Positions 1 through 62,402 of a stretch of DNA of 64,000 bases are shown in pieces. Position 1 is the stretch's first letter. Each line of letters starts with the position of its first letter. A program made the translations under genes and the position numbers. A model generated the notes under the pieces. It saw only the letters and a list, made by a program, of their open reading frames with translations, did not search any database and was not told the origin of the DNA. The stretch is from Geosiphon pyriformis uo1 (lineage: Eukaryota; Fungi; Glomeromycota): the NCBI GenBank assembly GCA_016748015.1, contig JAAOMT010000213.1, positions 92,485 through 156,484 of the forward strand, in the 5' to 3' direction.

Positions 1-382
1 ACTTTTTATCCTCCACACTGATGCATCTGGTTATGGACTTGGTGCTGTTCTTTCCCAGAAAGATGAAGATAACAGAGAACACGCCATAGCATATGCCAAT
101 AGAACTCTTACACCAGCAGAAAGGAACTACTCAGTCACTGAACAAGAATGCTTAGCAGTAGTTTGGGCTACCAGCTACTGGGACAAATATCTTAAGGGTG
201 TAAAATTTTTGGTGGTAACAGATCACCAAGCTTTGGTTTGGCTATGCAACAAAAAAAACCTGGAACATAAATGGATAACTTGCTGGATACTCCACTTGGA
301 TGAATTTGACTATGACATTCAACACCACAAAGGAGCTAATCATCAAAATACTGATGCTCTCTCCAAACTTACCATCCAGTGA
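1..382 (+). pseudogene. RNase H C-terminus of A1 pol, ending DALSKLTIQ*
   Basis: Read directly from the sequence; TGA at 380-382. Confidence 0.85.
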
Positions 383-447
383 TAGTAAAACCCTCTCAAA
401 CCAAACCAACTTAATTATTTGTAACTTCTTCACAAACAAACACGATA

Positions 448-1760
448 ATGGACTTGGACAACTACTCTGCCTTAATTGAATTTTTGGGTAAAAGACAATA
501 CCTGCTGGACTATACTCGACAGCAAAGAGAACATTTGCACAAACAATCAAATTTCTATTTGATTTGCCAGAACCAGTTATATAAAAGAAATAAAAAAGAT
601 TCTGACCACCCCCAGAGAGTCATTAGATTTGAAAAAAGAGAAATTGTGATCTACAATATGCACACTGATCCATTAGCTGGACACTTTGGAAAAACAAAAA
701 CAATTCAGAAAACTTTAGCTCGTTATTATTGGCCTACCTTGAGAAAAGACATTGCTGAATACATCAAAACCTGTAATACCTGCCAAAGAAGAGAAAAACC
801 CAATTGCAAGGAAGATATCCATCCAATTTCTGTTGGTCAACCATTTAACAGAATTAGTATAGATGTTGTTGGACCTTTAACAATAACTCTTGATGGCAAC
901 AGATATATTATCACAGCTACTGACTATCTTACAAAGTGGGTAGAAGCAAGAGCCACCCCAGATTAAACAGCAGTCTCAATTGCCAATTTCATTTATAAAG
1001 ATATCATTTGTCACCATGGTTGCCCCAAAGAACTTTTATCTGACAGAGGAAGAGCTTTTCTCAGTACACTGGTTGAAGAACTTTGCAGAAAAATGGGAAT
1101 ACGTCATAACTCTCTTCCCCTTATCACCTCCAAACAAATAGCCTAGTGGAACATTTCAATAGAACACTATGTGAAACCCTAGCCAAAACCAGTGAAGAAA
1201 CCAACCTATGGGACAAAGTATTGCCTTCAGCTTTGTTCACCTACAGAACTGTGAATCATGACATAACAAGTTATGAACTCTTTTATTTGCTCTATGGACA
1301 AATGGCAACTCTACCAATAGAAATGGATATAGAAACAATATCTTTTAAAAAAATAACAATAGGAGATTACAAGGACATTTTGCAAAGAAGACTTGGTACC
1401 ATTCTTGACTCATTGGTAGAAGCATGGATAATTGCCTTTGAAAAGATAAAACAGTTCCAAGAGAAGCTCAAAAAGAAAAAGACTTATAAAACACTTTTCT
1501 TAAATATTGGTGATTTAGTTTTGGAATACTGTTCAGACAGAGACAATGTCTATGGTGATAAATTCTCCAGCCACTGGAAAGAACCTTTTATAGTCAACAA
1601 AGTTTTGAACAATGGTTCTTATATCTTACAAAATCAATATAGAACAATCTTCAATGATCACCCTGTTTATGGCATACGACTCAAGAAATATTACAAACAA
1701 CCTGATTGGTTACCTGTTGTGGTAATACCAACCCAAATGATCAGCAAAAATCAGATATAA
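448..1760 (+). pseudogene. Integrase of A1 (HHCC zinc finger, DDE core, GPF-type C-terminus), with one stop and one frameshift
   Basis: ORFs 448-966 and 1146-1760: HTDPLAGHFG..CNTCQ, IDVVGP, LSDRGRAF, EHFNRTL, WKEPF. Confidence 0.92.
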
Positions 1761-1801: not shown

Positions 1802-2458
1802 ATGAACAATTATTTCCTGGATCAAAACATTCAAAACACTTTCTATACTCTTCATGAGTACTGGATTAAGAACTATCCAAATGCTACTCTGACTATCAGA
1901 AAACAAACCACCATAACAGACAACAGTGGAACTCATACTGTTATTAGACCAAAGAAAACAACTACCAGAAGAGAAAGAATTGGTAGCAAAATGGATAAAT
2001 ACCTGCTAGAAAGCATAACAGCAGCGATACTTTTACCTTTCAGCACAATTAGAAAAACGATACAAGAAATCTTGTCCATAGACAAAAACTTGTCATATGG
2101 AAGACAATTAAAACTCTATGGTTGTCTTAGTGAAATCATAGAAAACATAAAGCTCATGAAGAAAACAACTTCAGAGATACAAGGGGAAATTTTGGGCATT
2201 ATACGATTGAATGTCCCAAGAGTTTTGATCATTGCTAGAAGAGCCAGAACTCTTATACAAAGATTTGGTTTCTTGGATACAAAACTTATTTCACCTCAAG
2301 TATTATATACCCTATCCACAAAAGATTTCAACAAATTAGTTAGTTTTGAGTTAGACAAAACCCTTCACATAGACTATTCCATAAATAGCTTGATTTCACC
2401 AGAGCTCAATCTCTTTGGAGAAAATAATGTTATGGTTGAAACCCATAGTTTTTATTAG
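1802..2458 (+). CDS. Family A ORF3, 218 aa, unknown function; overlaps the PPT and ends in the 3' LTR
   Basis: Open from ATG 1802; same ORF in four other A copies in the window. Confidence 0.8.
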   Translation: MNNYFLDQNIQNTFYTLHEYWIKNYPNATLTIRKQTTITDNSGTHTVIRPKKTTTRRERIGSKMDKYLLESITAAILLPFSTIRKTIQEILSIDKNLSYGRQLKLYGCLSEIIENIKLMKKTTSEIQGEILGIIRLNVPRVLIIARRARTLIQRFGFLDTKLISPQVLYTLSTKDFNKLVSFELDKTLHIDYSINSLISPELNLFGENNVMVETHSFY

Positions 2459-3165
2459 TTATCACATGTATTAGACACTGATGTCATATAATTAGCCATC
2501 CTATTTTTAGATAGTAATTGTTGATCTGATCAATGACCTGACCATTGACCTGATCATTGACCTAATCATTGACCTGATTAATAACCTGATCATTGACTTG
2601 ATCGTTGACCTAATCATTGACCTAATTGTTGACGTAGTCATTGACCACTTTAGATAGCTATATAGGCAATGATTCCCTTAGCTATAGAATGACATGATCA
2701 AAGTAACAAAATAAACAATATTAATTACTTCCTTTCATAATCGCTTATTCTTCTTTCCTTACCTTCAAGTATTTACTTGTTGGCATTCACATACCTTATT
2801 TTTTCCCCTTCTTGATTTGTGTTTGTTAGAATTAGCCTGAGAAGCAATTGGCTTGCTCTTGTAATTCATTGAATAAAAAAATAATTGAAAAGCACAACAA
2901 TACCTGTTATTGATTCTAAGAATTGCCAAGTTGAAGCATAGAATAATAGCAGTGGTGTTATCTTGTTGACAATCATGGACTATTCCTTTACCTTCAGATT
3001 TAAGAAAAGATTAGTGACTGTGATTTTTATGAGACTGATTATGCACATTGAATTCCTACTTATTCAATTTGCTCCTTTTTTGTAATTACCTCTTTATTTA
3101 TTTCCATCACTATACAATACTGTTCTCCCTTGCTATCCATTAGCTTGTTACTCCAACTTGTAACA
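2428..3165 (+). repeat. 3' LTR of A1 (variant central part)
   Basis: TG..CA termini, purine tract GGAGAAAATAA before it, 12-bp TGACCTGATCAT array at about 2520-2647. Confidence 0.92.
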
Positions 3166-4624: not shown

Positions 4625-4663
4625 TTATCACATGTATTAGCCACTGGTGTCATATTGTTACGG

Positions 4664-5636
4664 TGTTACCGAAGGTTTTTGGTCTCTTTTCTGTAATGTT
4701 GTTGATACTTATTTGCTGTGAATTCACGTTTTCAGGAAGTAGTTGAACCTCTAATAACTGAATTTATCTTCAAATTATCTCCTATAATTTGAACTTGTTG
4801 GGCTTATGAGTGGAATGGCCAATTCCATGTCAGTTGCTTTATGTAGTTACGTTGTAGTAAACATCAACTCTTTCCCAGGAATTGCTTGTCTGGAAGCTCA
4901 CTAAAAATGTGTAGTTACTTTGCTGTGAAAGTCAACTCTTCTACAGGAATCTTGTCTGTAGGCTATCTTAATGATTGTAATAAGAAAAAAAAAGAAAAAT
5001 AAAAAAAATGTAAAAGAAATAGGATTTATCAAGGGAAACGTTTTCTATTCAGGCCTGGAATTACTAACAGTTTACTGAAATTGGTAGCTAATCAATTTCA
5101 AAATGTTAGTTGGGTTTTGGGGATTTTCTAAGTGCAATAATTAAAGAATTTGGTTTTTTTTTGATATTTATTTCTTTTTGTGTGTGTAGGAATGGTTCTA
5201 AGTGATAAATCTAAAGTAAGATATATTTTCTTGAAGAGAGAAGCTCTTCTTTTATACAACTTGTTATAACACTATTCTATGAACTTGAACTTTGTTATTT
5301 TCTACAATTTCGCTGAATTAAAGATACATTTCGGCAAACTACAAGTTATTTCGGCAAACTATTAGATATTTTGGTGAACTATCAATTATTTCGGTGAATT
5401 TCTATAAATTTCGGCAAACTTTTGAATGTTACATAGTTTGGGGTATTGTATAATTGATCATTGCAATTAGGTTACATTTGTGTTGTGTACAATTTAGAAT
5501 ATTAATTAAATGATAATTTCGGACATTTTTGCTAATGTAATAAGTGATCATTTGAAACGATAATATATGCTAATTAATGATAGGAATTATAAGATAATTT
5601 CATGCTAAATAATATCTCTAATTTCGTCTGGTAACA
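4664..5636 (-). repeat. 3' LTR of B
   Basis: Near-identical to 18721-19694; PPT GAGGAGGAGGTTA adjacent (5637-5649, minus strand). Confidence 0.95.
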
Positions 5637-6324
5637 TAACCTCCTCCTCAAAACTGAGCTCCATCGAAGTCCAAGTACTGTCTGTTATTTCCAGATAATA
5701 ATCCAAAATTATTGAAAAAATTTGGTCTGAAAATTGTTGAAATTTCAGTTCTGTAAGCTTTCCAATGTATTGGATCTTCAAAGGTTGAAAAATTGGGTTT
5801 TGTAATATGTTTTCACAGATGTGGAATAGGTCATAAAGTCTAAGAGCAGCTCTAAGCCTGTAGCGACTGTTTGTTGATCCAGCTGTTGTCTTGAATTCGT
5901 TGTGGAATTGTTTCTGAATAGCTTCTTTTGTGAGGTTTGCTGTTGTAAGTTCCAGTTTCCATTTGTAGAGTGTTTTTCCAATGTGAAAATATCTATAGAT
6001 TGGAGGATATTCAGTGTTTTCCTCATTGAGACACAGTTGAAGTTTTTGTTGAATTGTAGCATTTGGTGGAATACTAATCGGAGTGAGCATTAGGTTTTCT
6101 CTTAAAGCAAGCTTTAAAAGTTCTGGCAGGTGAATTCCAGTATAATTTCTTGTGTTCTTTCTATACGGGTGATATTTTCATAAATTTAGGGCTAATTTTG
6201 TAACTACTTCTGTTTGGGTATAATTTATGTGGTTTCCAGTAACAGTAATGGATAATTCGGGTATTGTTTTTAAAGCTAACATTAGTTTTTGGGATAATTG
6301 TTGAATGTTTTAAAGAATAGTCAT
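5605..6324 (-). pseudogene. Family B ORF3, about 239 codons with two in-frame stops explicable by C>T
   Basis: ATG at 6324 is in frame with ORF 5605-6090; motifs shared with ORF3 of A and C. Confidence 0.72.
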
Positions 6325-6441
6325 TATAAGCAATTTGAAAAATAAAAAAAATTATTTTTGGTGTATGAATTTTTATGTTATTTTTGTTTTGTTTTTGTGA
6401 GATTGTTTCTAAATTAGAAAAGAATAACTAGTAAAATTAAA

Positions 6442-7826
6442 TTAAGTGTTCAGGTTGGAAGGTTGTTCAATGACAACTATTGGTTCTAAGTTTTGGGGAA
6501 TATCTTCAGGACTGACCAAAGGAGAATGTGTACCAATTTGTGAAATTAATGGTTCAGGATTGTTTCTGAAGTGATAGTGTTTCAAACGATCTCCATGTGC
6601 GACTTTTGCTAGGATTTTGTCATCAAGTCTTAGCTTGTATGATCTGTTGCCTAGGACTTCATGGATAAAGAATGGTCCATCCCATTTATTTTCAAATTTT
6701 CCACTCCATTGTTTTTCAGCTTTAGTTCTGTGTAAGAGAACTTTGTTTCCAATTTTAAATTCATTGGTAACTGAAGGCAATTTGTCATCATGCCATTTTT
6801 TTTGTTGAGCTTGGGAGTGTTCAATATGGGTGGCTGCTATTTGTCATTTTCCTTCCAATGTGCTAAGCAGAGTGTAGGCTCTTTGCTGAAGCGTTTCTTG
6901 GAAATTGTTTTCATTGATCGGTTGTGCTGGGTATGTTTCCACTGTGAAATTAATTGGTAATGTTGCTGTTCTTCCATAAATTAAATCAAATGGTGTGTGT
7001 TTCGTGGTATCTTGTTTTAATGTTCTATATGCTAGTAACACTGATGGAATAAAGAGATCCCATTCTTGCTCAAAATCAGTTGAGACTTTGGCTAATGACT
7101 CACACAATGTTCTGTTAAAATGTTCTACAAGTTCATTTGTTTGTGGATGGTAGGGCAAAGACAGAGGTCTTTTGACATTGAATTATTCACAAATTTCTTG
7201 TATCAGGTTGTTCACAAAGTGTGTTCCCTGATCGGATAAAAGTTCAATTGGACATCCATGTCTATAAATGATGTCTTTGTAGATAAAATTTGCTATTGAT
7301 TTTGCATCTGCTTGTTGAATGGCTCTGGCTTCAGGCCATTTAGTAAGATAGTCTACAGCTACTGCAATATAACGGTTTCCTTGAGTGGTAATAAATAGTG
7401 GTCCGACTAAATCGATACCAACTTTGTCAAAAGGCTGTCCAACTTTGATTGGATTTAAAGGTTTTGTAGGGCGAGTTCCTCCTCTTTTTTGACAACTATC
7501 ACAAGATTTGACATATTCGTGAATGTCTTTTCTCATTCGAGGCCAATAGTAGTATTCTAGTATTTTTTGGGTGGTGCTATCTTTTCCGAAGTGTGCTGAT
7601 GAAGGATCTGAGTGCATATTGTATAAAATGGTCTCTTTTTCCTGTTCTTGTATTAATCTAAGTGGTTTGATTGGGTTTTTGGAATTTCGATAATAGATAA
7701 TGTTGTTGTGTAGAAAATATTGTTGGCTTGTTGTTGTAATTGATGTTTTTTGTCTGGGGACCAATCTGTTGGGATTGTTAATGTCTCTAAATATTGTTTG
7801 AGATTGTTGTAGTTTTCGGGGTTCAT
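6442..7826 (-). pseudogene. Integrase of B
   Basis: HSDPSSAHFG..CDSCQ, GIDLVGP, LLSDQGTHF, EHFNRTL, WDGPF. Confidence 0.92.
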
Positions 7827-7851
7827 TGTTTGTTGTTTTGATGCTGTTAGT

Positions 7852-9130
7852 TTAAATGGGTGTTGGTTTTGTTTTCTCATCTTGCCTTATTCTTGAGAGA
7901 CAATCAACGTTGGTGTGGAGTTTTCCTGGTTTGTGATGTACAATGTATTGGTAATTAGCTAAAAATCCTGTCCATCGGGTTTGTTTTGCATTCAGCTGGG
8001 TGTTTTTGTTTTGAAGCCATTTAAGTCCAATATTATCAGTGATAATATCGAATTCTTTGGGTTTGAGGTAAAGGTTGAAGTAATGTAGGGCCCAGATTAC
8101 TGCTGTGGTTTCTAATTCTGTTGTGGGGTAGTTCTTTTCGGCTGGCTTTAATGTTCTACTAGTATAAGCAATTACTCGCTCATTTCCATTGTCATCTAAC
8201 TGTGATAGGATGGCACCAAAGGCAGTATAAGAGGTGTCAGTTGCTAACCGGAATTGGTTGCTGAAGTCTGGGTAGGTGAGGATTGGAGCTGTTGTGAGTT
8301 TTTCCTTAAGTATCTCAAAGGCATTTTGGTGTTCTTCTGTCCATTTGTATTCGACATTTTTAGTAGTGAGTTGGTTGAGAGATTTTGCAATTTCTGAGAA
8401 TTTTTTGATGAATTTTTGGTAATAGGATGCTAATCCAATAAATCCTCTTAATTCTGTGGTATTTCGTGGAGTCTTGAAGTTTTTGACAGTACTGATTTTT
8501 CTGGAGTCTGGTTTAATTCTATCTTTGCTAACAATGTGACCAAGAAAAGCTAAACTTGTTTTTTTGAAGTAGCATTTTTCAATGTTCAGTTTCAATTCTG
8601 CTTTCCATAATCGTTGAAAAACTTCTCGCAGGTGAATTAAATGTAGCTCGAAAGATGGTGAATAAACATTAGTGTCATCAAGATAAACTACTACTGATTT
8701 CCAAAGGAGGCCTTTGTAAACAACATCCATGAGTCTTTGGAATGTTGCTGGTGCATTGCATAATCTAAAAGGCATTACATTGAACTCGTAATTTTCTCCT
8801 TGAGTGGTGAATGCTGTTTTGGGGTGGTTTTTGGGATCTATAGCAACTTGCCAGTATCCACTCTCTAAATCTAATGTTGAAAAGTATTTGGACTTTCCAA
8901 AGGCATCCAACATGTCATCAATTCAGGAAAGAGGGTAGGCATCCCCAATGGTGACACTGTTGAGTTGTCAGTAATCAACACAAAATCATATCTTTCCATT
9001 TTTCTTTTTAACTAGGACCACAGGTAAGGCCCATGGGCTCATTGATGATTGAATAAGCCCATTGTTAAGCATCCGTTGTACTTCTTCTCGGATAAATTGG
9101 TGACTTTCTGGAGCAACTCGGTAGGTTTGT
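7852..9130 (-). pseudogene. Reverse transcriptase and RNase H of B
   Basis: LDLESGYWQ, MPFRLCNAPATFQR, YLDD, LATDTS, EKNYPTTELE, ITDN. Confidence 0.95.
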
Positions 9131-9714
9131 TGTCACCTGGGTTTGGCATCTCCTGTATAGATTTGGTGTTGAACCAAATCAGTTCTTCCTAAGTCATTGT
9201 TGTTTTCGGCAAAGATATCAGCAAATTCTGCAATTAGTTCTTTGAGCTGGATCTGTTGTTGTGGTTCAAGTTGTCCCATGTTGATTCGAGATAGTTTTTT
9301 CATAACAACATGGTAGTTTTCAGAGCTAGGGTTTGGGTTGATTTTTGGTAGTGAATGTCCAATAATTTCAGAGAAATCAGGGACTGTTTGGGGTAATTCT
9401 TGTTGAAATATATTACTGTGAATAGCTCCAATTTCTAAATTATTTAATAAAATTATGAAATAATTATTGGGGTTGTAAAAAGTAACTCGGACTTTCTTTG
9501 TTCTTTCTGGAATATAAATGTTTGGGATCGAAATATTATGTTCTAAGCAGACTTGTTCATTGGACTCAAAAATTTGTTGTGTGGTTGTTGGCTTTGTGCA
9601 AGTGTAGATTTCCAGATGTTCTCCAAAGGGTGAGATAGTAATCAGTTGTAGAAGTCTAAGAATCTGGTGGGATTTGTTTTGTGTGTTAAGAGCTATATTA
9701 ACTGGAACTGTGAA

Positions 9715-10140
9715 TCGTCCAGTTGAACTAAAACCTTGGGTTCCTCTATCGCTTTTTCCTAATTGTTCTCTTTGATTGACTAGTTGCAAACCCAAAATGT
9801 TGATTAAGGGTAGGTAAATAGCTTGGGCAATTTTTTCAGCATGTTTGATCTTAAATGGTTTGTCAGTTTCATTTTGAAGCATTACTATTATGTCTCCAGT
9901 ATATCCAGCATCGATTATTCCTCATCTGACATTGATTCTTTTGCTTGCCAGAGAGGACCAGAAGGCAATTTGAACCATTGCTCCTGGCAGAATTTCGAGT
10001 GCAATTTTGAGGTTGATTTTTGTGAGAGATTTGGGTTTAAGAACAAGAGTATCCTTGCCTGGATATCTTAGGTCATATCCAGCATCAATTTCGTGTGCTT
10101 TTTCAGGTTTTATTTCTTGTCCGTTGTTGTTGAAGTATTT
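9715..10140 (-). pseudogene. dut: dUTPase domain in B polyprotein
   Basis: Motifs I-V: AGYDL, (R)SSLASK, IIDAGYTG, KIAQ, RGTQGFSSTG. Confidence 0.92.
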
Positions 10141-10259
10141 AAGTTGTAAGGCAGGCTGATTTTCGATAAGGTAGATGGGTGTTGTTTCAATTTCTTCCGT
10201 TTCTTCAGGTTCTCCAAATTCAATTTCATTCTCATCATTTTTGCTGGGCAAGGGGATAC

Positions 10260-10880
10260 TAAGAGCATAGCATTCAGAACACCATTGTTCATCACAAGAC
10301 ATAATGCATTCTTTACATAACCTAATGTTCATTTGCTCTAATCGTTGAATTTGAGCTTCTTGGGTTGGGTAGGTGTGACTTGCAATTTGGTGGTAGACTT
10401 CTACTTCATCTTCGTAATCGAATCCAGCTAATTCCATAGTGTATTCAATGTATTCTGCTTCCTTTATTTGACGAACATCTTCTTTGGTAGCTTCATTAAT
10501 TAATGCCATTGCTAAGTCAAAAATCATCTCAGCATCATGAAGGTAGTGATAAAGTTTGTTGAGAGCACTGTTGTATGCTGCATTAAAGGGTGTTCCTCTT
10601 TTTACTTTTTCTGAAATTGATAAAGCATATTGGCAGGTCTGATCGCAGATGCCTCCTCTCATTGCTATATCAATCCAATTGCATTTTTCTGGTAGCATAT
10701 TTCCACAAGTCAAACAAGGGGTGTTGTCCCATTTTCCGCTCTTTTTTATTAGATGGCCCCATTGCTCTCTGTGGCAAGCCTTACAGTAATAACAAGTATG
10801 ATTCTCATATTCTTTTTCAGGTGAAATGCAGGCTCCCATTGATGATAGTTTCTTGGGGCAGTCCTTATATTTAAGGGGAA
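10260..10880 (-). pseudogene. Cys-rich putative zinc-binding domain between protease and dUTPase (B)
   Basis: YYCKAC, PCLTCG, CDQTCQY, HYLHD, LCKEC..C..WCSEC; conserved in C and D. Confidence 0.7.
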
Positions 10881-12103
10881 TATAGGGGTGTTGTTTCCTT
10901 GGTTCGGGTTTTGAGTAAGGTATATTCCATTCAGAGGTTTCGGGTTTAGTGTGTGAGGTAAAATGTTCTTGTTCTGTTTCATCAGCCCAGTTGGACATTG
11001 ATCCAAGAGCCATGAATGTTTCAATTATCGGTTTTTCTTCTTCTGGTTTGAATTCAAAAGCTGGGGCTTTTTCAGAGCGTTTGTTGAATGTACCACAAAT
11101 GGCAGGTACCCAGACATGTTGTCCTTGGTAGGAGATTGTTAACTCTTGTGTTTTCCAATTCAGATTAGCATTGGCTTTTTGAAGCCAATTATTTCCGACG
11201 AGAGCTTGGTACTGGGGTGCATTGTTACGGTTTAAGAATTTAGCAAAAAGAATCATAAAAATAATACAAACTATTCAATCATAATATAGCACAGTAATAA
11301 TCTTAGAAAGGTAATGATTAACATAGTAGCAAACACCATCTTGCAATAGTGGCAAGCACCAGTTCACAATAGCAGCCAACACCAACTGGTGATAACAGCA
11401 AGCACCAGGTTGAAATATCAAAAAGAAAGTATTTTCTCGTAGAACTACAAACATGTATATATACAGTAGTTTTAATATTGGGAAAGAATCANNNNNNNNN
11501 NNNNNNNNNNNAGAAGACCCCAGACAGTGGGTAGATTTCAGTTCAGCCTCTGAGAAGGAGTACATAAACACACACAACAATCAAGAATTAAAGAATAACT
11601 TACATCGCAACAGTAAAAAGAAAGCCTTCAGTGTAACAGTGACATTATCACACAAATAGAATTGAGGAACTCATGAAAGACTGATTGCAATTAAAGCGGG
11701 ATATTAGCAATTAAATATAACAAGAAAACCATCCTGTAACATTTGGTAAACCCTACGAGGAAAGAAAATCAAAAAGGAAATAATAATTAGTAATAATTCA
11801 TTGCTAAAAAGGAAAAGACAAAAGTGGCGACAAAAACCCCTAATCTTACTGTTCTTGAATTCTGCCATGCTATTTACACACAAAATCAAAGTGATCTTGG
11901 ATTACCAGAAGGGTGTTGTCCAGCAGAATCTGCCCTCACTTATTATATCAACGCCAGAATAAATTTTCATATAGGAAAGGAAGAAGAACCACACGATGCA
12001 AAACTTGGATTGTATAGAGAATTATCACAATACACTACAAAAGAAGTAGCAGTAATAGCCGCNNNNNNNNNNNNNNNNNNNNGAATTAGAGGAAAACGAG
12101 GCT

Positions 12104-12530
12104 ATGTTCAGTGGAGCAGCATTGGACGAAAAACGCCCAATTACTGCTATGTATACGGAAGCCACTGTAAACAATACCCCAATCAAACTTATCTTAGACA
12201 GCGGATCCGCTGGAAGCATCATAACGCTTCAACTAGTAAACCAACTGGGTTTCAAAGTTGATCGTGCTGCGACGTCCCAAATCATAACAGCCGATGGAAG
12301 TACAAAGCTGCCTTATGGCAAAATCGACTCATTCCCTTTCGAAATTAACGGCATAGTAATACCTACGAAAGTATTAGTAATGGACGCTACACAATATCAA
12401 GCATTAGTAGGGAATGACTGGCTAACAAAAGCCAACGCCACCTTAGACTGGACCACCCAAGAGCTTCTGATCAATTATAATGGCCACCAGGCCAAAATTC
12501 CAGCCACCTGTGGCCACTTCCAAAAACCCA
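12104..12530 (+). pseudogene. Aspartic protease of D
   Basis: LILDSGSAGSII ... ALVGNDWL. Confidence 0.9.
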
Positions 12531-12885
12531 GCGCCAACCAAAGATCTACCTTCAAATTTGAGGAAAATCCAGCACTACCAGCCATCGAAACCTATCAGCT
12601 CTCTTAGGCTGATGACCAAAAAACAGGACTACCAGCCGTACCAACGTGGACCAGCGAAGAAAGATCCGAATGGAACCAGGTAAGTTCACGAAGAAACCAC
12701 CAGCGACGCAGACCAAAGCTAGAATGCTCGGTTTGCAAGAAGAAACTCTTGTCTATGACTGTGTGCAGCACACCAGACGAAGACCCAAGAAACCCCACCC
12801 ACTACTATTGTAACCATTGTAACAAAGAAAAATACGGTTACCCAGAAAGACACGGAAAATGGGANNNNNNNNNNNNNNNNNNNNG

Positions 12886-14323
12886 GGAGACATACCAATT
12901 ACAGGAGGATATTCATCACTATTCCAAAACCCTCTTTTTCAGCCAAAATTTAGAACAGGGTTTGAAAACCATGAAGAGAAGTCTGAATCAGAATCCGAAA
13001 AAGAGACCAGTGAAAAAACAATCACAAGACCAGTCACTGGAACAAGCAGCCAGTCCAGAAACCAAGAAACTCGTGATCAAGAGGAAGAACCGGATATAAG
13101 GGAAGCCACCTTTAGGAACGCTTAAGGAAATATCATCCCACCTCCTCTTAGACCAATAAACCCACCAGCAGAAAACGGCAATGAAATGACCACACCATAC
13201 ATTGCAAGACTAACAGATTTCTCAAGAGAGGAAGAAGAAATAGACGTGCACACATGGCTCAGAGAAGCACAAAAAGCCATCCAGGCAAATAACTGGAACA
13301 ACCAAAGAGCAATTTAAACATTACCTTTCTTTCTGAAAGGCACAGCCGACTCGTGGTATCAAAGCCTGGAAACAAAACCCATGAGCTTTGCCGAATTTAA
13401 AAATGCACTCCTGGAGTATTTTAGCGACCCAAACGCCGTAATCCAACTACAGAACGAATTCAATACTATCAAGCAAAATACCGGTGAAACTGTTACCCAA
13501 TATCTTGCTCGATTCAATTGAATTCGCCATCAGATTGAAGTGATTGAACAAGGATACTACACTGATCCTCAGGTTTTAAATCAGTTTATTAGAGGATTAA
13601 AAAGCAGCATTTTAGGAAAAGTACGCCCTGCCCACCCTAATTCCTTACCAGAAGCCGTTACGCTCGCCAGAGCTCTTGAATCGGCTGAGAAAGAAGCTAA
13701 CCATAGTCAAATGGTTAACATGGTAATGGAGGAAAATAAGACAGAAACATTAGAGAAAAGAGTAACGTGATTAGGGGAGGAACTCTCTAAGAAAATAGAA
13801 AGTTACCTCATCCCGGATCCGAGAAAAAATACATACCAACCACCCTAAAGACGCAGCCAGGAAGTCAGCGACAGTCGAAATAATCGCCCGTCGTGCCAGG
13901 AATTCAGAACAGAAACACGCGCCTGCCATTTTTGCAAACGCATAGGACATTTGATTAGTCAATGTCGAACGCGAATGATGCAGGAAGCACGCGAAAATAA
14001 TTACTACACACCACCCCAAATGCCCAGAAACCAGTACACACCAATACCATGCTAATATCCCACCACGTATCAAAATCAAGGAGCTTACCAGCAACAGCCC
14101 ATGATAGCCAACCCGAATTGGCATCCCGAGGCCTGAAATCAGCCCATGTGGAACCAGAACGCGTTGGTCCAGAGGAATCCAAACCGCGCCGGAACCAATC
14201 AGCAAACCAATCCAAACTACCAAAATTATCAACAAACTTACCTTAATATACCGGAAAACCTGATCATCGGAAACAATGACAGTAGAAACATAAACAGAAC
14301 CAAGAATTCCTCCAAATTGAGCC
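12886..14323 (+). pseudogene. Gag capsid and CCHC nucleocapsid of D
   Basis: HTWLREAQKAIQANNW, LPFFLKGTADSWY, QFIRGL, CHFC..H..C. Confidence 0.8.
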
Positions 14324-14829
14324 ANNNNNNNNNNNNNNNNNNNNCCAATACACGATCCTCATCTGTGACTGGGTAAGAGGAGGAACGCCGTTCGAAGCAG
14401 CATTCAACAGAGCGTTAAAAAGACTACAGCACTACCCACATGACGAGGACAAGTTGTACAACACCGCACAAGCCAAAGTAAGAGGAGGAACCACCGAAGA
14501 AATACGACGTTGGAAAGAGTCAGCCAAAGTAGCCGACGAAGTCGCCAGCTACAACATGTTCGACCCAGTGGACGAATTCCAGGACTACTACCAACAACTA
14601 TGCCCCACTCGACAAGAGCAAGAACAATACCTCTGCAAAAACTGTCTCATCCCATGCCAAAGTCAGTGCTGTGAAGAGTGTCAAGACAAAAGGGACTTAG
14701 AAAGAAAAATGGAAATTGAGAATCAGCAGTCTCAAAATCAATTAATAAATCAACAAGACTCACCTGACAGTCCCGAGTCAGAAAAATTTGTAGCCTATAC
14801 TGACCTAGAACAGGTGACCGACATCCGAT

Positions 14830-15250
14830 ACTTCGACAACGGGCACTTAGGAATAATACCCAAAAGAGCCCATTCAACCGACGCCGGATTCGATCTACGT
14901 TATCCGGAAGACCAATCCACAACGTTACCACCCAGGAGCATCACCAAAATCGACCTAAAATTAGCGGTTGAAATTCCGCCAGGAATAATGGTTCAAATGA
15001 CGTTGCGATCAAGCCTCGCGAAAAAAGGAATAAGCGTTCAAGGAGGAGTAATTGACTCCGGATACACTGGAAATTTGATGGTTTTGTTACAGAACAATTC
15101 AGAAAAGCCTTATACCATTGAATCTAAGGAAAAGATTGCACAAGCAATTTTCCTACCATTGGTAAAAATTGGGAAATTTGTGCCAGTGGAAAATCATGAG
15201 GAATTGTTACAAACAACGAGAGAAACTTTTGGTTTCGGATTGACAGGAAA
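14830..15250 (+). pseudogene. dut: dUTPase domain of D
   Basis: AGFDL, RSSLAKKG, GVIDSGYTG, KIAQ, RETFGFGLTG. Confidence 0.92.
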
Positions 15251-16399
15251 AGGAATTGAAGCAAATTTCACTGAAACAATAGAGGAAAAAGGTGAAGTAA
15301 TTAAAAATGAGCGGTCCATCATGCTCCTATCATATGGAAAATCAGAAATAAGAATAAAAAAGACAATTAAAGAAAAAGACCTAATATTTGAGCCCTACCC
15401 AGAAACTTGCCAACAGTTTCTCATAGGACTTACTAACCTTTTTATTCCAGCTGATAAAGCTCAATGGATAAAAATTCCTATCGCAAACACCACAGAAGAA
15501 CCCATCTACATTCCGGAAGATACCATCATTGGATACCTCGGAACGGAGCTAGAAAACGCGTCAACACCACAAGAAATTCTAAATTTCCCAGAAATCGCCC
15601 NNNNNNNNNNNNNNNNNNNNCCTAATCTTACTGTTCTTGAATTCTGCCATGCTATTTACACACAAAATCAAAGTGATCTTGGATTACCAGAAGGGTGTTG
15701 TCCAGCAGAATCTGCCCTCACTTATTATATCAACGCCAGAATAAATTTTCATATAGGAAAGGAAGAAGAACCACACGATGCAAAACTTGGATTGTATAGA
15801 GAATTATCACAATACACTACAAAAGAAGTAGCAGTAATAGCCGCAACTATTGTCAAAATCCATCGAGAAATTGAGCAATACACCAATGAAAATTTTCCAA
15901 TATCCACAGGAAACACTAGGGAACGCGCCAACAAAACCAAAGAAAATTTAGAAACTAATCAGGAAAGTAACCAGCAAAAACTAGAAACACCAGCTCAAAC
16001 GCCAAAGAAAACTGTCACTCAATCAATAAAGAAACAACGTATTTATTCACCAGAAGATAAATCNNNNNNNNNNNNNNNNNNNNNNNNNNNNNNNNNNNNC
16101 TAAAGACCATTAACATTCTGTGTTTCTAGATTAGAGAAACACATCAGGCAATTGCAAGGATAGCCTCAGAGAAGACCCCAGACAGTGGGTAGATTTCAGT
16201 TCAGCCTCTGAGAAGGAGTACATAAACACACACAACAATCAAGAATTAAAGAATAACTTACATCGCAACAGTAAAAAGAAAGCCTTCAGTATAACAGTGA
16301 CATTATCACACAAATAGAATTGAGGAACTCATGAAAGACTGATTGCAATTAAAGCGGGATATCAGCAATTAAATATAACAAGAAAACCATCCCATAACA

Positions 16400-18675
16400 G
16401 CGTTCATTACAAGAACTTTGACTGGAATGGTGATTCCATCAAGAGTGAATGGAAAATTGTCAATTTCTCCTACTGGGGTTTTTTTCATGCCATCAGCAGT
16501 GACAATTACTGTTTGAGCTGGTTGGTCGACATTTTTTTTCAACTGTTGCATTAACTGGTAAGTAATAATGCTTCCAGCAGATCCACTGTCTAGGATCAAG
16601 CGAATTGGCTTTCCTTCTACTTCAGCTTCTGTGTACATTGCAGTGATGGCTTTTTGCTCATTAGCTGCTGCATTGCTAAGCAAGAATGGTGATTCATTTG
16701 CTTCAAATTCAAAAGAAAAAGTATCAGAGAGATTGACGTTTTCAGCAATTTGGGCTGGTGGAATAGTAGTGTGGTTATGAGAAGGGTTTCGTTGTTATTG
16801 TGCTGCAGCTCTACCTTCCGAGAGTGCAGTATGGTGAAAATCCTGTTCTTCCAGCATTGTTAAATAACTGGGTTGAGTGTGGTAATAGTTGGGTCTTGGT
16901 TGAGTGGTATTTCAGGGAACCAATTGGTTGTTTGAACTGATTCTACTATTGTTTACTTGGTATTAGTTTTGTGGTGTGAATTGATTTTGTGTAATCAGTC
17001 TTTGAGCAGATACTTGATAATGTTGGGTGGGTGGTTGTTGGTGTTGCTGTTGGATTGGTTGTGGGGCAGGCTGATAATAGTTATTTTGGTATTGGGGTCT
17101 TGATGGATAGTAAGCTGGTGGTAATTGTTGATAATAAGATTGCTGTAGTGGAGAGTAACATTGATTACCCCTATTTTGTTGGTCTTGTTGCAGCTTTCTG
17201 CAATCTCTTTTCCAGTGGCCAGGGATTCTACAGTAATGGCAATTCTGGGGCTGGTTATTGGAAAGTGGTGCAAATTTATTTTGATTTCGTCTTTGGGGTG
17301 GTTGATATCTTTGGGGTTGTTGTTGTTGGTTGGTAAAATAGTTTTCGACCTTCTTTGTGAGTTGGTCAATTTTTTCTTCAGCTGCTGAGCTGGTTTTTCC
17401 AATTGCCAAATTTACAAGTTTTGTACAGTTGGCTTCTTCTATGGCCATTTCATATCTTTTCGCATGCTGTATGGCAGAGTTTAAATCTTCTGGCGTGTGT
17501 GGGCGAACCTTTTTAATTAGTTTATCTTTTAGGCCAGCAATAAATTGATCCAAGATTTGAGCATTGGAATAATAATCATTTGTTTCGAGTTGGCGAATTC
17601 ATCTGAGAAGTTTGTTGAATTTCCCAATATAAGTCATAACAGATTCGGAGGGTTCTTGTTTGATATTTCGAAAACGATTGCGAAGAGTGATAGAAGTATT
17701 ATTGTTAGTGAACTGTTCAAGGAAGGCTGCTTTGAAAGCATTTCAATCATTGAATGGGGCGGCAAGGTTTTCAAACCATTCTCCTGCTGTTCCTTTGAGA
17801 AAGTAGGGAATTGTTCTTAACATTCTGGCAGCATTCCATCCATTTGCATCTCCAGCTTTAGTAACTTGGTCGAGCCATTCTTGGGGACTGGTCTCAATAT
17901 CTTTCCCATTGAATTCAGAGATTTTTGCGATGTATGTTGTCATTTCGTTTTCTTCATTTTCACTGTCTATTGATTCTTTTTTGGCTATTTCAGAGTTGTT
18001 TTCTTTGTTTGCTGCTGTCTCAGAGTGTTCACTTTGATTTTCAGCTAGAAAATCAAGGAGATTGGAACTAGTTTGAAGGGGTTTTTGTTGTTTTGTGGAA
18101 CTTCTGAGTGATGTAAAATCTTCTGGTCTTACAAATTGATTCAAGGGTGAATTAGGTGTTTGTGCTTGTGCAAGTGAAGCTGGAAAAGGTGTAATAGTAA
18201 GTGGAAGTTTTGAACTGGTTCTTTGTTCAGGTGTTTGTAAATGTTTGGCAGTTGTTTTCGGTAGTGTTGGAGTATTTGGGGTGGTTCTTGAATATTGTTT
18301 TAATTTGTTTTTAACTTTGTTGCTTGTTTCTGTTTCCAATTCAAAGTCAATAGTGTATTGAGACTGCACTGGATATGTTTCTTCACAGTATTTGATAATG
18401 TTAAAATTAAGTTCATGAAAGTAAGTGACAAGTGTTTCACTATTAAGGTCTTCAGTTCCCAACTGTGAATAGTGTACTAAATTATTGTAAAGGTTGCTTC
18501 TAACTTCTGAGATATTATAATTTCCAAAAAGATAATTGTTGATGCGGTTTTCAATGTATTGGTATACTGATTTCTTGACAACTTCAATTCCGTCTGGAAT
18601 GTTGAATCTTTGCTTGCAGTGGGTGTAAATTGATTGGTAATACTCTAGAGTTGTTGTGTCTGGTGTGATTGCCAC
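16400..18675 (-). pseudogene. Gag and protease N-half of B, in one reading frame
   Basis: SPQEWLDQV, IPYFLKGTAGEWF, QFIAGL, CHYCRIPGHWKRDC, LILDSGS; ORFs starting at 18675, 17553 and 16683 share a frame. Confidence 0.9.
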
Positions 18676-18700
18676 TTTGAAGTTGTTTTTGCTGTGTTGT

Positions 18701-18720
18701 TTCCGTGGGAGAGCACCAAA
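18701..18720 (-). promoter_or_regulatory. Primer-binding site of B (TGGTGCTCTCCC)
   Basis: TGG 2 nt after the 5' LTR; similar to the PBS of C (TGGTGCTCTCTGTGAGG) and A. Confidence 0.75.
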
Positions 18721-19694
18721 TGTTACTGGAGGTTTTTGGTCTCTTTTCTGTAATGTTGTTAATACTTATTTGCTGTGAATTCACGTTTTCAGGAAGTAGT
18801 TGAACCTCCAATAACTGAATTTATCTTCAAATTATCTTCTATAATTTGAACTTGCCGGGCTTATGAGTGAAATAGCCAATTCCGTGCCAGTTGCTTTATG
18901 TAGTTACGTTGTAGTAAACGTCAACTCTTTCCCAGGAATTGCTCATCTGGAAGCTCACTAAAAATGTGTAGTTACTTTGCTATAAAAGTCAACTCTTCTA
19001 CAGAAATCTTGTCTGTAAGCTACCTTAATGATTGTAATAAGAAAAGAAAAGAAAAATAAAAGAAATGTAAAAGAAATAAGATTTTATCAAGGGAAACGTT
19101 TTCTATCCAGGCCTGGAGTTACTAACAGTTTACTGAAATTGGTAGCTAATCAATTTCAAAATGTTAGTTGGGTTTTGGGGATTTTCCAAGTGCAATAATT
19201 AAAGAATTTGGTTTTTTTTTGATATTTATTTCTTTTTGTGTGTGTAGAAATGGTTCTAAGTGATAAATCTAAAGTAAGATATATTTTCTTGAAAAGAGAA
19301 GCTCTTCTTTTATACAACTTGTTGTAACACTATTCTATGAACTTAAACTTTGCTATTTTCTACAATTTTGCTGAACTAAAGATACATTTCGGCAAACTAC
19401 AAGTTATTTTGGCAAACTATTAGATATTTCGGTGAACTATCAATTATTTCGGCAAATTTCTACAAATTTTGGCGAACTTTTGAATGTTACATAGTTTGGG
19501 GTATTGTATAATTGATCATTGCAATTAGGTTACATTTGTGTTGTGTACAATTTGGAATATTAATTAAATGATAATTTCGGACATTTTTGCTAATGTAATA
19601 AGTGATCATTTGAAATGATAATATATGCTAATTAATGATAGGAATTATAAGATAATTTTATGCTAAATAATATCTCTAATTTCGTCTGGTAACA
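18721..19694 (-). repeat. 5' LTR of B
   Basis: Matches 4664-5636; contains an array of about 20-bp ATTTCGGCAAACT units. Confidence 0.95.
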
Positions 19695-19885
19695 ATGGTT
19701 GAAACCCATAATTTTTATTAGTTATCACATGTATTAGTCACTGATGTTATATAATTAGCCACTTTATTTTTAGATAGTGATCATTGACCTGATCAATGAC
19801 CTGACTGTTGACCTAATCATTGACCTGATCATTAACCTGATCAATAACCTGATCATTGACTTAGTCATTGACCACTTTCAATAGC

Positions 19886-22049: not shown

Positions 22050-22080
<31 letters not shown>
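21911..22080. other. Long poly(T) spanning an N gap; poly(A) tail of unreliable length
   Basis: Homopolymer flanking 20 N. Confidence 0.8.
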
Positions 22081-22203
22081 GTTAATGTGTAGCTATGCTG
22101 GTCATTTATTAGTTATTCCACAGTAATGTGGCAGTTTCATAAAGCCAGCTCACCCAATAATACATATTACAAGATGCGGCTAACCACAAGTGAAAAGTCT
22201 TAA

Positions 22204-24581: not shown

Positions 24582-25958
24582 ATGGACATTGAAAATCTGT
24601 TGGCTAGAAATAGCTCAGTTATCTCAAAAGAAGGTAATACCCTTGGACAAACTCATGTAATACAACACACTATTACTACCAAAGAAACTCACCCCATCTA
24701 TTTGAAGTCTTATCAATCCAATCAACATAATGATGAGTTTATCAAAAAAGAGATAAACCAGATGAAAGATTTTGGATTTATACAAGAAACCAAGAGTAAA
24801 TGGGCTTTTTCAGTTGTGGTGGTATCCGAGAAAGATGGAACCCTACACTTCTGTGTTGACTATCACAAACTAAATGCCATTACTATAAGAGACATGTACC
24901 CATTCCCCAAAATTGATACAATACTAGATAAATTCAATGGTGCTGTTTTCTTCTCAACCATTGACTTAACTGCTGGATTCTGGCAAGTAGAGATGGATCC
25001 AAAAAGCAGAAAAAAAACTGCTTTTATTACCAAGTATGGCACCTATGAATTTACTGTCATGCCTTTTGGTCTTACCAATGTTCCTTCCACCTTTCAATGC
25101 CTAATGGACAAAGTATTTGAATCAGTAAAAAAGAACTTTGTTCTGGTCTACTTAAATGACATAATAGTCTACTCAAAAACCTGGAATGAACACCTTGAAC
25201 ATTTACAGAAGGTTTTTGACCTGCTCAGAAATGCTGGTCTCAAGATAAACACAATCAAATCTTTTTTTGGACAACAATCCACCCAGTTCCTTGGTTATCT
25301 TATTACAAAAAATGGAATCTTCTTTGATCCAGCTAAAGTTGAAAAAGTTCAGAACATTAGACAACCAATGAATGTTTCTGAACTATGCTCTTTCCTTGGT
25401 TTGGCCTCTTACTATCACAAATTTATTAAGAATTTCTCTAAAATCACCTTTCCTCTCAATCAGCTACTCAGGAAAAATGTCAATTATCACTGAGACATTC
25501 ATCAACAAAAAGCTTTTGAATTTCTGAAGGAAAAACTTGTTACTGAACCAATTCTCAAACAACCTAATCTGAACCAATCTTTTATTCTCCATACTAATGC
25601 ATCTGGTTATAGACTTGGTACTGTCCTTTCACAGAAAAATGAAAATGGCAAAGAACATGCCATAGTATATGCCAGTAGATCCCTTACACCAGTAGAAAAG
25701 AACTATTCAGTTACTGAACAAGAATGTCTAGCAGTAGTTTGTGTTACCAACTACTGGGATCAATATCTTCTTGGTGCAAAATTCTTAGTGGTAATAGATT
25801 ATCAAGCTTTGGTTTGGCTGTGCAAAAAAAAGAAGTTGGAACACAAACAAATAACTTGCTGGATACTCCACTTGGATGAATTTGACTATGATATTCAATA
25901 CTGCAAAGAAGCAAATCATCAAAATGCCAACACTCTATCTAGACTTACCATCCAGTAA
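24582..25958 (+). pseudogene. RT and RNase H of A3
   Basis: FCVDYHKLN, IDLTAGFWQ, MPFGL, YLND; ends SRLTIQ*. Confidence 0.93.
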
Positions 25959-26579
25959 CAATACAATTTCTCAAACCAAACCAACTTAATTATATATAAT
26001 TCTTTCATAAACAAACACAATAATTGACTTGGACAACTACTCTGCCTTAATGGAATTTTTGGGTAAAAGACAATACCCACCAGAATACACTTGACAGCAA
26101 AGAGAACATTTGCACAAACAATCAAATTTCTATTTGATTCGCCAAAACAAATTATACAAAAAAAACAGAAAAGATCCTGATCACCTCCAGAGAATCATCA
26201 GATTTGAAGAAAAAGAAATTGTAATATACAATATGCATACTGATCCATTAGCTAGACACTTTGGAAAAACAAAAACAATTCAAAAAACTTTAGCTTGTTA
26301 TTATTGGCCTATCTTGGGAAAGAACATTGCTAAATACATCAAAACCTGTGACATCTGCCAAAGAAGAGGCAAACCCAATTACAAAGAAGATATCCATCCA
26401 ATCTCTGTTGGTCAACCATTTAACAAAATTGGTATAGATGTTATTGGACCTTTAACAATAACTCCTGATGGCAACAGATACATTATTACAGCTACCAACT
26501 ATCTTACAAAATGGGTAGAAGCAAGAGCCACCTTAGACCAAACAGCAGTCTCAATAGCCAATTTTATTTATGAAGATAT

Positions 26580-33090: not shown

Positions 33091-33747
33091 CTAATAAAAA
33101 TTATGGGTTTCAACTGTAACATCATCCTCTCCAAAAAGATTGAGCTCCGGCAAAATCAAGTTATTTATAGGGTATTCTAATTAAAGGGTTTTGTCTAACT
33201 CAAAACTAACTAGTTTGTTGAAGTTTTTTGTGAATAGAGTATATAGTACTTGAGGCGAAATAAGCTTTGTATTCAAGAGACCAAATCTTTGTATAAGAGT
33301 TTTGGCTCTTCTTACAATGGTTAAAACTCTTGGGATATCTAAACGTATAATGCCCAAAATTTCCACTTGTATTTCTGAAGTTGTTTTCTTCATGAGCTTC
33401 ATTTCTTCTATGATTTCACCAAGACGACCATAGAGTTCTAGTTGTCTTCCATATGACAAGTTTTTGTCTATGGGCAAGATTTTCTTAATCATTTTTCCAA
33501 TTGTCATGGAAAGTGTAAGTATTGCTACTATTATGCTTTTTAGCAAATACTTATCCATTTTGCTACCAATTCTTTCTCTTCTGGTAGTGGTTTTCTTTGA
33601 TCTAATAACAGTATGTATTCCACTGTTATCAGTTATAGTGGTTTGTTTTCCAATGGTCAGAGTAGCATTTGGATAATTTTTGATCCAGTACTCATGGAGA
33701 GTATAGAAAGCGTTTTGAATGTTTTGATTTAGGAAATAATTGTTCAT
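33091..33747 (-). pseudogene. Family A ORF3 (copy A4), one premature stop
   Basis: 657 nt, same length as 1802-2458. Confidence 0.8.
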
Positions 33748-33788: not shown

Positions 33789-35102
33789 TTATATCTGATT
33801 TTTGTTGATCATTTGGGTCAGTATTACCACAACAGGTAACCAATCAGATCGTTTGTAATATTTCTTGAGTTGTGTGCCATGAACAGGGCGATCATTGAAG
33901 ATTGTTCCATATTAATCTTGTAAGATATAAGAACCATTGTTCAAAACTTTGTTGACTATAAAGGGTCCTTTCCACCGACTAGAGAATTTATCACCATAGA
34001 CATTGTTTTTGTTTGAACGGTATTCTAAAACTAAGTCACCAACACTTAAAGAAAGTGTTTTATATGTTTTCTTTTTCTTAAGCTTCCCTTGGAATTGTTT
34101 TATCTTTTTAAAGACAATTATCTGTGTTTCTACTAATAAGTTGAGAATGGTATCAAGTCTTCTTTGCAAAGTGTCTTTGTAATTCCCTATTGTTATTTCT
34201 TCAAAGGGTATTATCTCAATGTCAGTTTTTATTGGTAGAGTTGTCATTTGTCCATAGAGTAAAAAAAAGAGTTCATAACTTGTTATGTCATGATTCACAG
34301 TTTTATAAGCAAACAAAGCTGAAGACAGTACTTTGTCCCATAAGTTTGTTTCTTTGCTGGTTTTGGCTAGAGTTTCACATAGTGTTCTATTAAAATGTTC
34401 TACTAGGTCATTTGTTTGGGGATAATAAGGAGAGAAAAGTTTGTGACGTATTCCCATTTTTCTGCAAAGTTCTTTAACAAGTGTACTGAGAAAAGCTCTT
34501 CCTCTGTCAGATAAAAGTTCTTTGGGATAGCAATGGCAACAAATGATATCTTCATAAATGAAATTGGCTATTGAAACTACTGTTTGGTCTGAAGTGGCTC
34601 TTGCTTCTACCCACTTTGTAAGATAGTCGGTAGCTGTGATAATGTATCTGTTGTCATTAGGAGTTATTGTTAAAGGTCCAACAACATCTATACCAATTCT
34701 GTCAAAGAGTTGACCAACAGAGATTGGATGGATATCTTCTTTGCGATTGGGTTTTCTTCTTCTTTGGCAGATATCACAGGTTTTAATGTATTCAGCAATG
34801 TTTTTTCCCAAGGTAGGCCAATAATAACGAGCTAGAGTTTTCTGAATTGTTTTTGTTTTTCCAAAGTGTCCAGCTAATGGATCAGTGTGCATATTGTAGA
34901 TCACAATTTCTCTTTCTTCAAATCTGATAACTCTCTGGGGGTGGTTAAGATCTTTTCTATTTCTTTTATAAAGTTGGTTCTGGCAAATCAAATAGAAATT
35001 TGATTGTTTGTGCAAATGTTTTCTTTGTTGTTGTGTGTATTTTGGTGGGTATTGTTCTTTACCCAAAAATTCCATTAAGGCAGAGTAGTTGTCCAAGTCC
35101 AT
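33789..35102 (-). pseudogene. Integrase of A4
   Basis: ORF 33912-35174; HHCC, GIDVVGP, SDRGRAF, WKGPF. Confidence 0.93.
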
Positions 35103-35170
35103 TATCATGTTTGTCAAAAAGGAGAAATTACTAATAATTAAGTTTGGTTTGGTTTGAGAGGGTTGTTCTG

Positions 35171-52594: not shown

Positions 52595-52790
52595 GTGATA
52601 TAACACAGAATAATGCACAATAACGTTGGATAATGCATTATAACATTGGATAACATGTTATAATGCAGGATAACACAGAATAGTGCACAATAACATAGGA
52701 TAATGTGTTATAATGCAGGATAATACAGAATAACATGTAATAATATCAGATAATGTGTTATAACATAGGATAACTAGCAATAACATAGAA
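52595..52790 (+). repeat. 10-bp tandem array (TAACAC/TAATGC-type units) in the C LTR; repeated at about 61750-61960
   Basis: TAA recurs every 10 nt. Confidence 0.85.
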
Positions 52791-59490: not shown

Positions 59491-59500
59491 TCCCAGACCC

Positions 59501-60868: not shown

Positions 60869-60948
60869 ACAATGGGCAGTAAATTAAATTGGAGAATTCA
60901 AATATATATAGCATCCGAAAAGCAGCAAGAAACAATAGAAATTTCAAC

Positions 60949-62368: not shown

Positions 62369-62402
<34 letters not shown>

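Follow-up and report, generated by a model that had tools for sequence, protein, structure and literature searches.

In textbook LTR retrotransposons and retroviruses, integrase enters the particle as part of Pol. In the window analyzed here, a 64,000-nt stretch of DNA, Ty3/gypsy-type copies carry a stop codon just after RNase H (RH), and integrase begins behind it. Is integrase a cistron of its own in these elements, and how would it then be made and delivered? Our answer to the first question is that integrase is very probably a separate cistron in these decayed LTR retrotransposons; the second can be answered only with less confidence.

Elements of the window

The window is a stack of decayed, nested LTR retrotransposons and LINE-like pieces, and all element copies in it carry transition damage. 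The closest named protein was a Geosiphon pyriformis model (90% alike across 45% of the query region), and Rhizophagus was among the named reverse transcriptase (RT) relatives, which makes a Glomeromycotina fungus, one like Geosiphon, the probable host. LTR elements make up 41% of the Geosiphon genome, according to the available part of PMC11952901. Element B spans 4664..19694 on the minus strand (LTRs 4664-5636 and 18721-19694; target site duplication [TSD] ACGG/ATGG). Its LTRs show 42 differences, every one a transition, and its interior contains nested material and N gaps. Element C lies at 52542..62808 on the plus strand (LTRs 52542-53638 and 61697-62808; TSD ATGG/ATGG). Both have two LTRs, 4-bp target duplications, a primer-binding site (PBS) starting with TGGTGCTCTC, and a polypurine tract (PPT); in C, the PPT precedes the 3' LTR, and gag, RT, and RH follow one another in order. 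Family A is present in several copies; the 3' LTR of copy A1 (2428..3165, plus strand) has TG..CA ends.

Three TSDs in the window are two-sided: ACGG/ATGG, ATGG/ATGG, and ATAT/ATAT. Those at 4660-4663, 19695-19698, 52538-52541, and 62809-62812 look CpG centred, like one Ginger1 target; the ATAT duplication does not. In opposite orientations, two A-family LTRs (at 3166 and at 26576-27262) occupy the same ATAT site of the integrase gene in other copies of the family, a site that may be a hot spot for insertion.

Junctions between RNase H and integrase

Five junctions from three families share one arrangement: a stop 4 to 12 codons past the D.LSR motif of RH, a G-poor spacer of 10 to 68 nt, and then integrase in another frame. 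In A1 (plus strand), RH forms the end of the pol frame (2..382; PF17917, E 3e-38) and stops at TGA 380-382. The spacer (383..447, 65 nt) is G poor, lacks ATG, and closes the integrase frame. The integrase ORF (448..1760) starts at ATG 448 and encodes a YPYY-type N terminus, HHCC, the DDE core, and a GPF tail; its decay amounts to one stop and one frame break. The A3 junction (25956..26025, plus strand) consists of TAA 25956-25958, a 64-nt spacer, and a start decayed to ATT at 26023. That of A4 (35100..35176, minus strand) has a TAG and a TGA stop, a 68-nt spacer, and ATG 35102. The A4 integrase ORF (33789..35102, minus strand), which contains one premature stop, served as search query. In B (junction 7824..7854, minus strand), TAA 7852-7854, read as TGA in most sample contigs, is followed by a 25-nt spacer and ATG 7826; the integrase ORF (6442..7826, minus strand) has a copy-specific 1-nt deletion near 7722 and two stops in the core. 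The C junction (59488..59503, plus strand) comprises TAA 59488-59490, a 10-nt spacer, and ATA 59501, from which integrase (59501..60868, plus strand) runs in a single frame with 11 decay stops to a TAG end.

All ten stop and start codons cited for these junctions in the preliminary description were found where it had placed them, and its spacer lengths (65, 64, 68, 25, and 10 nt) were borne out. Other wording needed refinement. A stop "a few codons" past D.LSR does not describe B, where the distance is 12 codons. TGA 35171-35173 of A4 is present as the orthologous stop, but the first in-frame stop is TAG 35174-76 directly ahead of it, a CAG in A1 and A3. Integrase does lie in another frame at the junctions, although the B copy of the window returns to the RH frame through its private deletion.

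Relative to RH, the integrase frame is -1 in A1 and A4, +1 in A3, B, and C, and 0 in L001, a metagenome locus described below. The integrase frame is closed within the spacer in A1 and A3 and open back across the stop for 28, 35, and 116 nt in A4, B, and C, respectively. As had been claimed for the A spacers, indels concentrate there: the alignment of A1, A3, and A4 has 5 gap runs in 68 spacer columns (about 3 indel events) compared to 0 in 939 flanking coding columns. The spacers contain 9 G in 232 nt, compared to 16 to 17% G in pol; with one spacer per family, the count is 5 G in 100 (p 7e-4 against 16%). Their predicted folding is weak (-0.6 to -8.5 kcal/mol per 70 to 80 nt, values without a shuffle control). 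None contains an out-of-frame ATG; a single in-frame one lies in A4, 6 nt ahead of the start. Premature stops number 13 per 1,727 RT-RH codons in four copies; at this rate, three independent families would each have one within 12 codons of D.LSR with a probability of about 7e-4, the frame change not yet counted.

Majority states of the junctions

We read majority states for families B and C from contigs of one DNA run, possibly the window's own sample. Two further runs, X2 and X3, yielded no contigs for this comparison. In C (1,909 contigs), position 59503 is G in 33,700 of 36,610 depth. This gives ATG, the original start that had been proposed for the ATA of the window copy. The TAA is unchanged and no indel reaches 15% among the best-supported 40 of 69 difference rows. 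In B (641 contigs, all 9 difference rows), position 7853 is altered in 43,460 of 45,516 depth, which turns TAA into TGA, still a stop; no change is listed at the integrase ATG. The 1-nt deletion of the B window copy is filled in 81,689 of 127,582 depth, so that most sample contigs lack it. A variant B subfamily is missing an AG in loose-end letters (6 contigs). A continuous RH-integrase frame in consensus sequences had been named as the observation that would speak against separate cistrons. Instead, a stop and an out-of-frame ATG are the majority state in both families; the layout stands, and the break at the junction is not a product of decay in these copies.

Relatives of the integrase

Four metagenome proteins, 58 to 66% alike, begin at the same Met, one of them a 438-aa protein without a break. 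In a separate search, we compared 1.84 billion representatives with HMMER and re-ranked the 150 proteins listed by best single domain. RH lies upstream in none of the best 27 of the 150 listed; the first fused protein has rank 28. Among these 27, 13 begin at profile column 1, 6 begin within 25 residues of it, and 8 are truncated at the N terminus. Metagenome gene callers always begin with M, a caveat on stand-alone starts. At residue 2, D, E, or N occurs in 21 of the 22 stand-alone integrases that begin at column 1, compared to 53 of 223 other proteins. Proteins with an N-terminal Met followed by D, E, or N are NatB substrates, and the enrichment is as expected of a real N terminus. The start Met is kept across integrases 32 to 74% alike. 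Some stand-alone matches may be Ginger DNA transposons; P0100 carries Ulp1.

A metagenome scan yielded one close locus among 30. In this decayed copy, L001, an RH-like tail is followed by TAA and, 30 nt later, by an in-frame ATG. DNA joining an RH-ending polyprotein to a stand-alone integrase came only from the window and from L001, the latter with 60 nt of upstream sequence. We infer that integrase follows the RH-ending polyproteins of other relatives as well. In the same scan, the heavily mutated control copies L003-L029 have scattered stops, yet RH and integrase share one frame. A search for longer integrase forms returned 3 distant conventional polyproteins only, which is weak evidence. 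There was no split-type locus in the scanned viral contigs or prokaryote genomes, and a phage collection gave a single weak transposase match and nothing else. The RT-bearing loci L031, L036-L040, L045, L046, and L115-L119 are fused controls. One of them, L031 (an IMG/VR contig), encodes gag, pol, integrase, and a membrane-anchored tail, presumably env-like, in a single frame of 2,387 codons. P0178, P0179, P0379, and P0380 are eukaryote-type clusters with members in one archaeal and one Bacillus metagenome bin; these members are probably misbinned contigs.

Relatives of the polyprotein

The RT search gave 4,403 matches, of which 120 were listed, ranked by RT score. The ranking used a corrected profile; RT domain cutting for control loci, polyprotein ends, and the quick tree used a profile with one mis-framed row. 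Among the best 17 of the 120 listed, 16 end 1 to 21 residues past the RH motif and 1 is cut inside RH. The best 30 comprise 21 that end after the motif, 4 fused, 2 cut, 2 with a non-integrase tail, and 1 without RH. The full set of 120 divides into 43 fused proteins, 27 that end after the motif, 31 with tails or endings of another kind, 16 without RH, and 3 that are cut. In one cluster, 11 of 12 members end at NADALSRL, 8 of them 1,321 aa long and located on contigs of 4.7 to 7 kb, and four Rhizophagus irregularis models on contigs of 95 to 816 kb end at NVDSLSRIR. On the strength of these two sets, we regard the polyprotein ends as real stops. In the relative P0223, Gag-Pol is one ORF of 1,321 aa. 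In a survey of relatives, as proposed in the preliminary description, intact-looking proteins agree with the break on both sides: integrases begin at the same Met, and polyproteins end at RH.

Of the 4 fused proteins among the best 30 RT matches, three are Rhizophagus clarus models (P0243, P0249, and P0251). Their sequence passes from RH "..YRK" straight into residue 3 of integrase and lacks NADALSR, a motif that we take to hold a conserved RH carboxylate. Their closest relative, P0232, keeps NADALSR and then stops. The R. clarus join is likely a predicted intron across the same break. A splice that fuses RH to integrase had been named as contrary evidence; these three models were its only sign, and polyproteins of other close relatives end at RH. 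A well-supported subgroup that includes R. irregularis (P0240, P0248, P0253, P0256, P0272, P0274, and P0281) carries a tail of 74 to 400 aa past RH, without integrase. The five tails scanned had no Pfam match.

Phylogeny of the two parts

The RT-RH tree contained 70 rows picked from the matches, 37 without integrase in pol (an R. clarus model counted among them) and 33 fused, and no named reference elements. RT-RH of the window copies groups among gypsy-type elements. B and C fall in a 26-row group (87/93), and A joins P0269 (92/94). In the quick tree, the split label changes once (SH 85). The careful tree needs 2 changes (1 to 3 across bootstraps, 22% of which have 1), compared to 23.5 in shuffles, with 0 of 500 as low. 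The separate-integrase trait is strongly clustered; we do not claim a single origin, since the careful tree needs 2 changes.

In the integrase tree (53 rows, with P0131 named as a fern protein), the window copies, stand-alone and Ulp1-bearing rows, four fused elements (P0109, P0126, P0110, and P0157), and plant-type rows, which we take to be Athila-like and Tat-like, form a single clade of 37 rows (100/99) whose backbone is poorly resolved. By sequence, this clade appears to match the YPYY group in the accessible text of Bao et al. (PMC2836005). The same text states that no Gypsy lineage clusters with Ginger1 and that the path between them is unclear.

Comparison with known systems

The elements resemble Ty3/gypsy members (Metaviridae, e.g., yeast Ty3) in TG..CA direct LTRs, PBS, PPT, and the order gag-PR-RT-RH-IN, and against the PDB, the integrase profile matches Ty3 Gag-Pol best (7q5b, E 1e-62). 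They differ in that a stop sets integrase apart as a separate ORF, and in having ORF3 and a 4-bp TSD. We class them as a Ty3/gypsy variant rather than as ordinary members because integrase is not cleaved from the RT-RH Pol polyprotein. Fungal element surveys, in the portions available, report elements of one or two ORFs and place integrase in pol (PMC2864245 and PMC3248453). The dUTPase-bearing fungal gypsy element PosPlaTy3-5, as described in part of PMC2864245, shares with B (Pfam match) and, judged by position, with C a dUTPase located between PR and RT; the description gives it one or two ORFs, none of them a separate integrase. A chromodomain, as in chromoviruses, had no match in P0001 or in the integrase tails of B and C.

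Read against the available text of Bao et al. 2010, which lists YPYY integrases in Ginger1 transposases, Athila/Tat, Cer1, Gypsy-1-I_RO, and DGLT-A (PMC2836005), the window integrase is by sequence of the YPYY type, with an N-terminal region ahead of the HHCC finger. Ginger1 is alike in its free-standing YPYY-HHCC-DDE-GPY/F ORF and in a TSD length of 4 bp. In contrast, the window copies are LTR elements with direct LTRs, RT, and RH and no 40- to 270-bp TIRs. The Ulp1/OTU tail of Ginger1 is absent from the window copies and P0001, and among relatives only P0100 has Ulp1. Ginger1 duplicates CCGG or CCGT/ACGG; of the three two-sided TSDs in the window, one has an ACGG flank, and the remaining flanks read ATGG or ATAT. 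Tat elements, in the part of PMC10508981 available, have an additional RH in a separate ORF, an accessory RH and not a DDE integrase. DIRS elements also have an enzyme outside pol, but it is a tyrosine recombinase. The literature that we searched, with subscription papers, supplements, Repbase, and GyDB outside its scope, nowhere describes a gypsy element whose DDE integrase has an ORF to itself.

ORF3

A third ORF follows integrase. In A1, it covers 1802..2458 (plus strand, 218 aa) and runs through the PPT into the 3' LTR; in A4, it lies at 33181..33747 (minus strand). That of B (5605..6324, minus strand, about 239 codons) has two decay stops and overlaps the 3' LTR, and that of C (60872..61682, plus strand) has one decay frameshift. 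The second junction of C reads TAG, 3 nt, ATG, and this ATG, 3 nt past the integrase stop, is likely the ORF3 start. ORF3 sequences of B and C are related (E 3e-11), and neither has detectable homology to that of A (profile probability 0.1). Of the lineage with the layout gag-pol(RT-RH), IN, and ORF3 that had been proposed, the separate integrase was upheld, whereas a common ORF3 was not detectable. ORF3 had no Pfam match, its Atlas matches, at 0.79 and at 0.93 (the latter with low recognition and 157 shared features), lacked credibility, and its predicted fold has a pLDDT of 39. ORF3 might help translation or packaging.

In both A and B, ORF3 crosses the PPT and extends about 31 nt into the 3' LTR (2428-2458 and 5605-5636). 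Five A copies (1802-2455, 3968-4621, 33184-33747, 46502-47134, and 47807-48364) contain 0 stops in 1,021 codons, compared to 13 in 1,727 for RT-RH of four copies.

Possible routes of integrase expression

The pol frame terminates right after RH, and we propose that a small share of 40S subunits would remain on the RNA. These would cross the unstructured, mostly AUG-free, G-poor spacer and initiate at the first AUG. Such reinitiation would yield little integrase relative to single-ORF Gag-Pol and require no protease cut. The new integrase would then bind its own template RNA, or RT, for packaging in cis, which is the weakest step. LINE-1 offers a likeness, with a long ORF, a stop, a short spacer (63 nt, compared to 64 to 68 nt in family A), and an essential second ORF; the part of PMC5972666 at hand proposes reinitiation across these 63 nt for ORF2 and describes reinitiation after a long ORF as very rare. 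LINE-1 and other cases of termination-reinitiation are non-LTR elements or RNA viruses, and the window junctions lack the UGGGA TURBS core in the last 150 nt of RH in all five window copies. For the whole statement, a separate integrase cistron together with reinitiation on the same full-length RNA, the chances appear evenly balanced.

The main competitor, a possible but less probable one, is a subgenomic RNA for the separate cistron, which would be produced either by splicing that joins a donor close to the 5' LTR with an acceptor at the RH end or by transcription from an internal promoter. Env genes are also made from spliced mRNA. So is foamy virus Pol, according to the available text of PMC3705302; foamy viruses resemble our elements in making an enzyme without Gag that needs its own packaging route, but there the whole PR-RT-IN Pol comes from spliced RNA, while here integrase alone is separate and RT stays with Gag. 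In each of the 6 junctions, a YAG precedes the start by 4 to 84 nt, an arrangement that is compatible with splicing and counts against reinitiation. In C, a CAG lies 4 nt ahead of the ATG and follows a CTAAT that resembles a branch site; a G-poor spacer would also suit a 5' UTR. However, about 3 YAG per 100 nt are expected by chance, the acceptor distance varies over that whole range, the variant B subfamily is missing the AG, no window copy joins the LTR or PBS directly to integrase, and the 3-nt gap ahead of C ORF3 leaves little room. We favor reinitiation over a subgenomic RNA because the spacers are short, free in length, G poor, weakly folded, and devoid of out-of-frame AUG, with no fixed acceptor position, and because of the second junction of C and the LINE-1 precedent. 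The remaining ways to a product would fuse the two parts. A regulated intron that excises the RH end, stop, and spacer would allow ordinary packaging, and the R. clarus models join their parts in this manner. This is improbable: the join deletes NADALSR, which P0232 keeps before it stops; over the last 150 nt of RH, B and C lack any GT donor of the pattern scanned for, and A has one only at the stop; the conserved Met and residue 2 would be needless; and related-family R. irregularis models stop at RH. A programmed frameshift or readthrough is slightly less probable still. It draws on the frame that is open across the stop in A4, B, and C and on L001, in frame behind a single TAA. Against it, three different frames would be required, the spacers of A1 and A3 close the integrase frame, no slippery heptamer is common to the stop regions, indels concentrate in the spacer, and the start Met is conserved across divergent integrases; recoding is thus unlikely. 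That the break merely reflects decay of ordinary fused elements is the least probable reading and is already largely refuted. All window copies carry transition damage, but B and C retain the break in their majority states, its coincidence by chance is about 7e-4, the heavily mutated controls L003-L029 retain a single RH-integrase frame, and open-reading relatives end at the same place.

A further alternative concerns delivery and can hold together with either reinitiation or splicing: integrase may never be packaged and would join the cDNA only once reverse transcription is complete, working in trans as a DNA transposase does. This is a doubtful reading. The protein starts at the YPYY motif common to Ginger1 transposases in the text seen of PMC2836005, the 37-row clade includes an integrase-Ulp1 protein, and DIRS recombinases occupy separate ORFs in the part of 10.64898/2026.05.21.726589 available. 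The same clade nevertheless contains the four fused elements, and its backbone lacks resolution. We consider it similarly unlikely that these copies belong to an old, large gypsy-type group whose integrase is an independent YPYY transposase outside Gag packaging and represents the missing Gypsy-Ginger1 intermediate.

Implications

With wide sequence-level support, the separate integrase ORF is a real feature and a variant form of Ty3/gypsy organization. Relatives from mycorrhizal fungi and the environment appear to share the layout, and the lineage appears to reach well beyond this genome. A successful group without the Pol-integrase link would mean that another way of delivery exists. If true, the proposal would entail either a new subgenomic RNA or one of the rare cases in which ribosomes reinitiate past a very long ORF. 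The layout makes the question testable in R. irregularis, for which Gypsy expression is reported in the accessible part of 10.1101/2021.03.30.436303. From an integrase that already has its own start codon, the step to a Ginger1 transposase or to a host gene such as GIN1 would be a short one. Judging by the R. clarus models, gene predictors appear to span the break with introns, and tools requiring a continuous pol would label intact members defective.

Additional features of the window

The dUTPase spots of the window, at 9133-10100 and 14850-15250, lie between PR and RT; in two relatives (from the set P0263, P0280, and P0245), dUTPase lies after RH, and one relative from this set has a NUDIX domain ahead of PR. 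A Cys/His-rich stretch of about 350 to 450 aa separates protease and dUTPase in B (9922-11274) and C (56300-57200); that of B had no Pfam match. No tRNA genes were found in the window. A further LTR-type family lies inside element B (11737-16103, plus strand) among N gaps, with a PBS variant TGGTAAACCC, a protease, and a dUTPase; its junction falls outside the window. LINE-like pieces at 22067-24489, 28400-32300, 43594-46035, and 48476-49628 encode an RRM with a zinc knuckle and an endonuclease.
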